Shown piece after piece: positions 37,339 to 40,656 of a DNA stretch of 64,000 nucleotides. The translations under genes and the position numbers were made by a program. Below the pieces are notes generated by a model. The model did not search any database, was not told the DNA's origin, and saw only the letters and a list, made by a program, of their open reading frames with translations. Origin of the DNA: Escherichia coli (GTDB lineage Bacteria > Pseudomonadota > Gammaproteobacteria > Enterobacterales > Enterobacteriaceae); the NCBI RefSeq assembly GCF_050920415.1, contig NZ_CP169309.1, one strand, 5' to 3'. Numbering within the stretch: the stretch's first letter is position 1; every line of letters starts with the position of its first letter.

Positions 37339-37471
37339 TGTATAAAAGGATAGTGAGGCGGATGAGTTGAGTTATGTAAAGTCTGTATCGGGCAGTGACT
37401 ACCGCTTCCTTGTGCAGGGCGGGATGCTTTACCATACTTGCCCCTGGTTGAATTTGTTAAATGGACCCCTC

Positions 37472-38557
37472 ATGTTCAAGCGTCGTTATGTAACATTGCT
37501 TCCCCTTTTTGTGTTGCTTGCCGCCTGTAGCAGCAAGCCAAAACCTACTGAGACTGAAACGACCACCGGAACGCCGTCTGGCGGCTTCCTGCTTGAGCCG
37601 CAGCACAATGTGATGCAGATGGGCGGCGATTTCGCTAACAACCCGAATGCCCAGCAGTTCATCGACAAAATGGTGAGCAAACACGGTTTCAATCGTCAGC
37701 AGTTGCAGGAAATTCTCTCCCAGGCGAAACGTCTGGATTCGGTATTGCGGCTGATGGATAACCAGGCACCAACCACATCGGTGAAACCGCCATCAGGTCC
37801 GAACGGCGCATGGCTGCGTTATCGCAAAAAATTTATTACGCCGGACAACGTGCAAAACGGCGTGGTTTTCTGGAATCAGTATGAAGACGCGTTGAATCGT
37901 GCGTGGCAGGTGTATGGTGTACCGCCGGAAATTATCGTCGGGATTATCGGCGTCGAAACTCGCTGGGGACGCGTGATGGGGAAAACCCGTATCCTCGATG
38001 CGCTGGCAACGCTGTCATTTAACTACCCACGCCGCGCGGAGTATTTCTCTGGTGAGCTGGAAACCTTCTTGCTGATGGCGCGCGACGAGCAGGACGATCC
38101 GCTCAATCTGAAAGGCTCGTTTGCCGGTGCGATGGGCTACGGTCAGTTTATGCCATCGTCTTATAAACAATATGCGGTAGATTTCAGCGGCGACGGGCAT
38201 ATCAACCTGTGGGATCCGGTTGATGCCATCGGTAGTGTGGCGAACTATTTTAAAGCGCACGGCTGGGTGAAAGGTGATCAGGTTGCGGTGATGGCAAACG
38301 GTCAGGCTCCAGGCTTACCGAATGGCTTCAAAACCAAGTACAGCATTTCACAACTTGCTGCAGCTGGACTAACGCCACAGCAGCCGCTGGGCAATCATCA
38401 GCAGGCCAGCTTACTGCGCCTGGATGTTGGCACCGGTTACCAGTACTGGTACGGTTTGCCGAACTTCTACACTATCACCCGTTACAATCACAGCACCCAT
38501 TACGCAATGGCCGTCTGGCAGTTAGGACAAGCCGTGGCACTGGCGCGCGTTCAGTAA
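37472..38557 (+). CDS. mltB: Membrane-bound lytic murein transglycosylase B (lipoprotein)
   Basis: 361 aa from MFKRRYVTLLPLFVLLAAC (lipobox LLAAC). Confidence 0.93.
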   Translation: MFKRRYVTLLPLFVLLAACSSKPKPTETETTTGTPSGGFLLEPQHNVMQMGGDFANNPNAQQFIDKMVSKHGFNRQQLQEILSQAKRLDSVLRLMDNQAPTTSVKPPSGPNGAWLRYRKKFITPDNVQNGVVFWNQYEDALNRAWQVYGVPPEIIVGIIGVETRWGRVMGKTRILDALATLSFNYPRRAEYFSGELETFLLMARDEQDDPLNLKGSFAGAMGYGQFMPSSYKQYAVDFSGDGHINLWDPVDAIGSVANYFKAHGWVKGDQVAVMANGQAPGLPNGFKTKYSISQLAAAGLTPQQPLGNHQQASLLRLDVGTGYQYWYGLPNFYTITRYNHSTHYAMAVWQLGQAVALARVQ

Positions 38558-38566
38558 CTCTTTGCA

Positions 38567-38598
38567 AGAGGGGGGTTAAACTTCCCTCTGTTTTCTTA
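38567..38598 (+). terminator. Rho-independent terminator after mltB
   Basis: AGAGGG...CCCTCT stem followed by GTTTTCTT. Confidence 0.65.
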
Positions 38599-38835
38599 CT
38601 GTTTATTCGAATGACGTAATTGCTTGATTTTTTTCGACAGCGATATCGCATATCCCAGGCAGACAACGCCTAACGCAGCCTGACCGAAGTCGAAAGGTTC
38701 AAGGTAGCCAGAAGATAAAATTTTACATATCACTGAAACCAGTGCACCGATGCCACCAATGATGACCCAAATACGCATTTGCGTGGTTTGTTTAAGCGCG
38801 TTTTGTGGCGTGTTATCCGTTTTCTTTGTTGCCAT
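38596..38835 (-). CDS. Hypothetical small membrane protein (79 aa, two predicted TM helices)
   Basis: ATG at 38835 preceded by AGGGAGAG Shine-Dalgarno; MATKKTDNTPQNALKQTTQMRIWVIIGGIGALVSVICKILSSGYLEPFDFGQAALGVVCLGYAISLSKKIKQLRHSNKQ; the longer 165-aa track ORF would overlap the pncC start. Confidence 0.5.
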   Translation of the reverse strand: MATKKTDNTPQNALKQTTQMRIWVIIGGIGALVSVICKILSSGYLEPFDFGQAALGVVCLGYAISLSKKIKQLRHSNKQ

Positions 38836-39017
38836 TGCTATTCTCTCCCTGTGAATACATATCAATGTGAACGCGGCATGGTAGCGCTTTTTCTTTACCG
38901 ACTGGTCGCAACAGTCTTTTTCCGGAACGCAACTCGTAAAATGAATCGCTCGTCCCCATCTTCTGCGGGAAAGTGCTATCTTGTCCGGCATATATTTTTT
39001 GACTGACTGAGGTTGTG

Positions 39018-39511
39018 ATGATTGACAGTGAACTGATGCAGTTAAGCGAACAGGTAGGGCAGACGCTGAAAGCCCGTGGCGCAACCGTAACAACTGCCGA
39101 GTCTTGTACCGGCGGTTGGGTAGCGAAAGTGATTACCGATATTGCCGGTAGTTCCGCCTGGTTTGAACGCGGATTTGTCACCTACAGTAACGAAGCCAAA
39201 GCGCAGATGATCGGCGTACGCGAAGAGACGCTGGCGCAGCATGGCGCGGTGAGCGAACCCGTCGTGGTGGAAATGGCGATAGGCGCACTGAAAGCGGCTC
39301 GTGCTGATTATGCTGTGTCTATCAGCGGTATCGCCGGGCCGGATGGCGGTAGTGAAGAGAAACCTGTCGGCACTGTCTGGTTTGCTTTTGCCACTGCCCG
39401 CGGCGAAGGCATTACCCGCCGGGAATGCTTCAGCGGTGATCGTGATGCGGTGCGTCGTCAGGCTACTGCGTATGCATTGCAAACCTTGTGGCAACAATTT
39501 CTACAAAACAC

Positions 39512-39515
<4 letters not shown>
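39018..39515 (+). CDS. pncC: NMN amidohydrolase (CinA-like)
   Basis: 165-aa ORF (ATG at 39018; GTG at 39015 alternative). Confidence 0.92.

Positions 39516-40656
<1,141 letters not shown>

Follow-up and report, generated by a model that had tools for sequence, protein, structure and literature searches.

The window, as we call the whole 64,000-nucleotide stretch of Escherichia coli DNA that was analysed, carries a small open reading frame among the core genes srlA, mltB, pncC and recA. The ORF lies on the minus strand in the spacer between mltB and pncC, which spans positions 38558-39017 and is 460 bp long (mltB ends at 38557 and the ATG of pncC lies at 39018), and its product is the 79-aa protein MATKKTDNTPQNALKQTTQMRIWVIIGGIGALVSVICKILSSGYLEPFDFGQAALGVVCLGYAISLSKKIKQLRHSNKQ. 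To verify the window coordinates, we compared them with the PGAP annotation of E. coli MFDS1022581, a strain of 100% identity, in which RefSeq/PGAP lists the ORF as a "hypothetical protein" (WP_000201677.1), as it likewise does in all carriers listed. The initial annotation of this locus had described an enlarged spacer of about 460 bp, holding a minus-strand ORF at 38596-38835 with a strong Shine-Dalgarno sequence and two hydrophobic helices, and each of these elements was found in the sequence and the hydropathy profile; its suggestion that the gene might be unannotated was corrected by the PGAP entry. The features of the locus are as follows:

37472..38557, plus strand: mltB, encoding lytic murein transglycosylase B, the convergent neighbour of the small ORF (PGAP coordinates)
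38567..38599, plus strand: intrinsic terminator hairpin of mltB, AGAGGGGGGTTAAACTTCCCTCT followed by a T-rich tail (10-pair stem)
38590..38967, no strand: presence/absence haplotype relative to K-12 (alignments, sliding identity)
38596..38835, minus strand: coding sequence of the small protein, 79 aa plus stop, with ATG at 38835 and TAA at 38596-38598 (PGAP CDS WP_000201677.1 of the identical strain)
38628..38634, minus strand: A7 homopolymer on the coding strand (T7 on the plus strand), in the codons Ser-Lys-Lys-Ile-Lys at the start of the basic C-tail (read from the sequence)
38836..38920, minus strand: 5' region of the small gene, the expected location of its promoter (promoter scan)
38843..38850, minus strand: Shine-Dalgarno sequence AGGGAGAG, with its GGAG core 9 nt from the ATG (read from the sequence)
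38900..38921, plus strand: terminator-like hairpin GACTGGTCGCAACAGTC followed by T5 (structure scan, alignment)
38922..39017, no strand: conserved intergenic block next to pncC (CTCGTAAAAT ... GAAAGTGCTATCTTGTCCGGCAT ... GAGG) (alignments)
39018..39515, plus strand: pncC, encoding NMN amidohydrolase with a CinA domain, the divergent neighbour of the small ORF (PGAP)

In the mechanical ORF list mltB begins at a TTG at 37367 (396 aa, with 37367-37471 as the extra part), and in PGAP it begins at the ATG at 37472 (361 aa, starting MFKRRYVTLLP... and showing a lipoprotein-like signal); the 396-aa version is probably artefactual.

A 165-aa reading of the small ORF itself that begins at TTG 39093 was discarded, since stop codons interrupt that frame in other Escherichia alleles; the ATG at 38835 is therefore the start codon. 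Two plus-strand ORFs of 75 and 34 aa were also rejected, being open merely through low divergence and devoid of a coding substitution pattern. Alignment of the Citrobacter, Salmonella and Pseudocitrobacter orthologues revealed a purine-rich GGAG or GAGAG at the position matching the Shine-Dalgarno sequence, and the DNA farther upstream could not be aligned between genera. The promoter scan found no convincing sigma-70 promoter upstream of the small gene (0 promoter-like sites in 38836..38920), the best -10 candidate being an extended -10-like TGATATGTA at about 38864-38856, which suggests that expression of the gene is probably conditional or low. SOS regulation through LexA was rejected for want of a LexA box upstream of the gene: no CTG-N10-CAG was found in 38558-39017, and the search did pick up the recA box CTGTATGAGCATACAG at 39518, which served as positive control.

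The A7 run near the 3' end of the gene is the exact point at which the reading frame switches in several alleles, giving ...SKKNQAITSFE in E. coli (P0160) and Escherichia sp. E1130 (P0016), ...SKKNQAIT in E. marmotae (P0013) and ...SKKSSNYAIRINSK... in P0009-P0012 and P0014. Both -1 and +1 shifts are represented among these variants, whose C-termini are altered or lengthened and which come from E. coli, E. marmotae and the cryptic clades; the run is a recurrent frameshift site in several independent lineages. Salmonella Typhi-type alleles (P0063, P0071) likewise carry a C-terminal frameshift.

In K-12 MG1655, pncC (b2700) and mltB (b2701) are adjacent with no annotated gene between them, as the initial annotation had stated on the basis of the gene numbering, and the gap is 144 bp. 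The two spacers are not identical: in the alignment K-12 is short by net 316 bp, being without the whole small ORF, its Shine-Dalgarno sequence and the proximal upstream DNA, and it keeps both the mltB terminator hairpin and the promoter/leader block next to pncC. The stretch absent from K-12 runs from 38590 to about 38900, and the ~65 bp beyond it show only ~70-80% identity to K-12 (alignments, sliding identity).

The mltB terminator hairpin forms the left edge of the segment missing from K-12, and it is kept in K-12 and in the carrier PT62. It lies 7 nt past the stop codon of the small ORF, so that the convergent mltB and small gene share a terminator. The second hairpin, GACTGGTCGCAACAGTC, sits between the start of the small ORF and pncC and could halt mltB read-through or antisense transcripts ahead of pncC; in K-12 the mltB hairpin is directly followed by a related sequence. 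The block next to pncC (38922..39017) is common to all genera and presumably constitutes the pncC promoter and leader. A motif upstream of the small ORF, GATGGGGA(C/T)G, lies in the GATGGGGACGAGCG block (minus strand, 38945-38967) and is nearly invariant in the alignment of all ORF-bearing genera, its place being taken by GATGGTGTTGGCG in K-12, which has no ORF; this motif could regulate the small gene rather than pncC.

The predicted membrane protein and its family

The small protein begins with a polar, Lys/Arg-rich segment (residues 1-21), which is followed by a clear and strongly hydrophobic TM1 (residues 22-40; Kyte-Doolittle 15-residue mean peaking at 2.5 over residues 22-36) and, after a loop, by a shorter and only moderately hydrophobic TM2 (residues 53-66; peak of 1.9 over residues 53-67) that carries a conserved LGxxCLGY motif. 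The loop (residues 41-52, SSGYLEPFDFGQ) is acidic and aromatic and is among the best-conserved parts of the family, and the C-tail SKKIKQLRHSNKQ is basic. By the positive-inside rule, such charges would place the termini in the cytoplasm and the loop in the periplasm. From its hydropathy and charge, the product is predicted to be an N-in/C-in two-helix inner-membrane hairpin, in which the Lys/Arg-rich residues 1-21 and the basic tail would be cytoplasmic and the loop would be periplasmic. AlphaFold, given a 13-sequence alignment, modelled a helix at 9-42, a loop at 43-46 and a helix at 47-78, with a mean pLDDT of 68. The GG in TM1 and the LGxxCLGY in TM2 would suit a tight packing of the two helices.

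The window ORF is a member of a narrow, unnamed enterobacterial family that has neither a Pfam nor an NCBIfam model. A word-indexed search found Escherichia proteins only, and HMM and profile searches then widened the family to Salmonella enterica, several Citrobacter species, Pseudocitrobacter and one Affinibrenneria genome (Pectobacteriaceae). The exhaustive HMM search of 1.84 billion representative proteins returned only 9 clusters; similarity within the family extends over 86-100% of the length at E = 1e-44 to 1e-25, and this exhaustive search recovered the same set. Intact members are 79-84 aa long. The window protein has the same sequence as P0156 (E. coli / E. fergusonii) and shares 82-99% identity with the other Escherichia members and ~50% with those of Salmonella and Citrobacter, and it carries all of the motifs conserved in the alignments, namely LKQ..Q.R.W, the GG in TM1, the SSGYxEPxDxGQ loop, LGxxCLGY in TM2 and the KKI..L tail. 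Other E. coli alleles are recorded as WP_000985460.1 and WP_000201679.1, and the UniRef members include A0A0L6ZXD7, A0A370V777, A0A6L5E3F1 and the Salmonella 'membrane protein' A0A379Q846. Salmonella members occur in thousands of contigs of many serovars and subspecies, three of the member proteins in at least 1000 contigs each.

Synteny was examined in loci of C. telavivensis, C. amalonaticus, S. enterica, E. fergusonii, E. marmotae and Pseudocitrobacter-like genomes; a profile scan of contigs gave 7 loci, among which the known carriers E. fergusonii and E. marmotae did not appear. In every enterobacterial locus examined, the gene lies directly upstream of pncC(cinA)-recA-recX-alaS and divergent from it, and it is usually convergent with mltB, the sole exception being the Affinibrenneria homologue, which has a different genomic context. 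In two Pseudocitrobacter-like loci (L008 and L013), a three-gene ABC operon of the ZnuA type is placed between the small gene and mltB and the adjacency to pncC is kept. This metal-uptake operon (ZnuA/ABC-3/ABC_tran) spans 3268-5715 in L008, L009 and L010 and 3268-5772 in L013.

Searches against curated collections returned nothing that would name the family. Pfam gave no significant match to the single protein or to all 13 aligned members (best, IncE at E = 0.027) and no match to its holin family models, NCBIfam gave only noise below threshold for 10 members, and neither PADLOC, PHROGs (at threshold) nor Rfam (at E <= 1) yielded a family. A sequence profile search of the PDB returned only GlpG at E = 3.5, and Foldseek, run with the AlphaFold hairpin against the PDB, gave nothing below E = 2.6, which is what one would expect of a bare helical hairpin. 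A literature search by gene neighbours, accession or locus tag found no relevant paper.

We also searched phage and plasmid collections with tblastn. Among 50,697 phage records there were only two matches, the unannotated ~1.9-kb records OR845620.1 and OR845594.1, which are filed as 'Escherichia phage ECO95 1-6-1' and hold halves of a Salmonella/Citrobacter-like homologue. The plasmid collection PLSDB gave one match, a 728-kb Salmonella 'plasmid' (NZ_LN868944.1) with a full homologue. All three look like chromosomal DNA in the wrong collection, and, as these were the sole phage and plasmid matches and PADLOC gave none, an origin in a mobile element was rejected.

Selection on the ORF and its distribution in E. 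coli

Pairwise dN/dS within Escherichia ranged from 0.08 to 0.29, and it ranged from 0.07 to 0.39 in those Citrobacter and Salmonella pairs for which dS could be estimated. Among seven Escherichia alleles, the 36 variable sites fell on codon positions 1, 2 and 3 at 8:5:23. The ORF is intact, with 79-83 codons, in 10 Escherichia and 8 other loci, and its frame is unbroken across four genera (Escherichia, Salmonella, Citrobacter and Pseudocitrobacter), the most distant intact orthologues sharing only ~30-50% amino-acid identity. These data demonstrate that ORF 38596-38835 is a genuine protein-coding gene under purifying selection. The initial annotation had proposed a small membrane-protein gene here, which the intact frame in related genomes and the third-position excess bear out.

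The gene is present in 573 of the 5426 complete E. coli genomes, in one chromosomal copy each and never on a plasmid, and K-12 and ~89-90% of complete E. coli genomes are without it, in line with its original description as possibly accessory. It is not a strain-specific novelty, since it is in place in every other named Escherichia species recovered, plus Salmonella and Citrobacter; intact orthologues at the same site were found in E. albertii, E. fergusonii, E. marmotae, E. whittamii and two cryptic-clade Escherichia genomes. Because the gene is kept in these other Escherichia and in Salmonella and Citrobacter, the K-12 state is best read as a loss. From this phylogenetic distribution, which covers few genomes per species, we infer that the gene was ancestral to the Escherichia/Salmonella/Citrobacter group and that the main E. 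coli lineage lost it by deletion.

Among the E. coli carriers, three classes of allele can be told apart, each closest to a different Escherichia species:

Window-type allele: 7 carrier genomes; nearest E. fergusonii; ORF identity 98.8%
NR319-type allele: most of the remaining 566 genomes; nearest E. albertii; ORF identity 99.6%, with 0 synonymous differences
PT62/CX12-type allele: a minority of the 566; nearest E. marmotae and Escherichia sp. MOD1-EC7003; ORF identity 97.9%

The NR319-type protein is also recorded from an O25b:H4 (ST131-type) genome. By its sequence, the window allele appears to be of the fergusonii type: identity between the window and E. fergusonii is mostly 97-100% per 100-nt window (lowest 94%) from about 37700 to at least 42500, and upstream of about 37700 the window is K-12-like. 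In NR319 (L002, ~900-2100), sliding identity delimited an albertii-like tract of ~1.2 kb in K-12-like flanks, and in PT62 (L025, 1501-1950) a marmotae-like tract of ~450 bp is set between flanks, in mltB and in pncC, with mostly 99-100% identity to K-12 (lowest 97.3%). Allele classes near three different species, embedded in K-12-like flanks, point to interspecies recombination, and the mosaic sequence suggests that this region beside recA received three independent interspecies imports, with tracts that we infer to be about 0.45 kb, about 1.2 kb and more than 4.8 kb long from E. marmotae-, E. albertii- and E. fergusonii-like donors, respectively. On the few genomes available per species, E. 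coli thus appears to have regained the gene at least three times by homologous recombination from marmotae-, albertii- and fergusonii-like donors.

The gene content upstream of mltB differs in E. fergusonii (L023 and L024, 5375-8094), which has no srlAEB there and instead carries a SIS/CBS-domain gene and a sigma-54 activator, resembling genes of the gutQ and gutM/srlR regions; the fergusonii-like tract of the window therefore ends inside mltB. In the S. enterica record LR134141.1 (L011, 4618-5149), srlA, which encodes the sorbitol PTS IIC component, is broken into two ORFs (105 and 86 aa), which looks like a frameshift or pseudogene.

Possible roles of the small protein

Taken as a whole, the observations are best explained by a selected small-gene family that is ancestral, was lost and regained in E. 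coli, and encodes a membrane-hairpin modulator, a reading that we believe somewhat more than we doubt. The small protein would use its TM helices and the conserved loop in the periplasm to bind a larger inner-membrane protein or complex, which it would modulate; its expression would be conditional, driven by a non-canonical promoter, and it would be dispensable under many conditions. Modulation of a larger membrane protein is, by analogy, the most likely role: the gene occurs as a single copy, keeps its synteny and evolves under purifying selection, conservation falls on glycines and small residues of the kind that pack helices and on a specific periplasmic loop, no tie to mobile elements was found, and many lineages dispense with the gene, all of which argue for an accessory or modulating function. 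As no match was obtained in Pfam, NCBIfam or the PDB, the mechanism is drawn from other small membrane proteins. Against this reading stand the lack of a recognisable sigma-70 promoter and also the frequent loss of the gene and the recurrent A7 frameshifts; the loss and the frameshifts show that it is easily dispensed with and would agree equally with a product that is toxic or mildly deleterious.

The main rival to this reading is a holin-like or toxic pore, in which the hairpin would oligomerise through its glycine-rich helices, in the style of a class II holin/pinholin or a type I toxin, would normally be silent and would possibly act with MltB. We consider it unlikely. The architecture, and the architecture only, is reminiscent of such proteins (two TM helices, N-in/C-in, with a highly basic C-tail), two members are named 'Holin' in UniRef, and weak profile matches were seen to the PHROG holin phrog_1129 (E = 0.0011 and 0.0027 for the two Escherichia members tested) and to the NCBIfam model holin_2 (NF037944; E = 0.0077 for one distant member, P0027). 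However, all of these matches fall below curated thresholds (16.4 bits for holin_2 against a cut-off of 50), and they were not reproduced by the Salmonella, Citrobacter and Pseudocitrobacter members; the PHROG lead, seen among 10 diverse members in only the two Escherichia members tested, was judged compositional. The convergence with mltB and the shared terminator could speak for a joint action of the two products, but an ABC operon parts the gene from mltB in L008 and L013, and MltB, a lipoprotein exported by the Sec/Lol pathway, needs no holin. Similarly, a normally silent pore would agree with the lack of an obvious constitutive promoter and with the repeated loss and C-terminal frameshifts, yet the gene is single-copy, syntenic across genera and under purifying selection, unlike mobile toxin loci, its product of 79 aa and two helices exceeds typical type I toxins, and there was no Rfam antitoxin-type RNA and no promoter-like site for an antisense transcript in a consensus scan, though such an RNA could escape the match. 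No annotated phage among the 50,697 records has a homologue, and no prophage genes or endolysin cassette lie nearby.

A bolder proposal, which we find distinctly improbable, is that, following an ancestral deletion in E. coli, the gene was independently recaptured at least three times through very short tracts of homologous recombination (from albertii, fergusonii and marmotae sources, one of the recaptures being in the O25b:H4/ST131-type background) for a selectable membrane phenotype, in which case it would be a lineage-specific fitness factor, possibly a pinholin-like protein that was domesticated as a partner of the adjacent MltB and controls the turnover of the envelope or the release of vesicles.

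It is very unlikely that the locus acts as DNA or RNA, either as an insulator/terminator module between mltB and pncC or as an RNA regulator, with the ORF being incidental. Plus-strand terminator-like hairpins at 38567-38589 and 38900-38916 do bracket the segment, and the block next to pncC is conserved; against this, the third-position excess and a dN/dS well below 1 constitute a coding substitution pattern, protein identity between genera is ~50% where the upstream DNA is unalignable, Rfam gave no match and K-12 functions without the segment. A chance or decaying ORF without function, for which its absence from ~89% of E. coli, the occurrence of frameshift variants and the lack of a known domain could be cited, is scarcely credible given a frame unbroken in Escherichia, Salmonella, Citrobacter and Pseudocitrobacter, purifying selection on the protein and a conserved Shine-Dalgarno sequence and start.

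The study of small membrane proteins has been systematically neglected, and this gene escaped attention because E. coli K-12 lacks it; it is nonetheless found in E. coli of the O25b:H4 type, which are of clinical importance. A net 316-bp presence/absence polymorphism between core genes, together with three imported alleles, makes an easy target for isogenic comparison, and the locus suits the study of short interspecies recombination tracts that restore lost genes. Should the product be merely a dispensable accessory peptide, the finding would amount to a routine annotation note.

Comparison with known small membrane proteins

Enterobacteria possess a number of small inner-membrane regulators, such as AcrZ, MgtS, MgrB, KdpF and CydX, most of which have one TM helix. 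The window protein resembles them in being encoded by a single chromosomal copy, in its size (below 100 aa), in its alpha-helical and membrane-embedded nature, in its small-residue helix-packing motifs and in its dispensability in the laboratory, but it has no sequence relationship to them and has two TM helices, where most of them have one.

Class II holins and pinholins, such as S21 of phage 21, share with it two TM helices, the N-in/C-in orientation, glycine-rich helices and a basic C-tail, whereas the window gene stands outside any phage or lysis cassette, has no homologue in the annotated phages searched and is syntenic across genera. Type I toxins are usually below 60 aa, with a single helix, and are often multicopy or mobile; those found near SOS genes, TisB and DinQ, have fewer than 40 aa and one helix. 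The window protein is likewise a small hydrophobic inner-membrane product encoded in an intergenic region close to recA, but it differs in having 79 aa and two helices, and its gene differs in having no LexA box, no antisense RNA signal in the Rfam and promoter scans, a strong and accessible Shine-Dalgarno sequence and no conserved long structured leader.

It is to the family of WP_000201677.1-like proteins that the window ORF corresponds without any difference, in length, topology and genomic position alike, and it belongs to an ordinary, uncharacterised family of small inner-membrane proteins rather than to a surprising or categorically new system.
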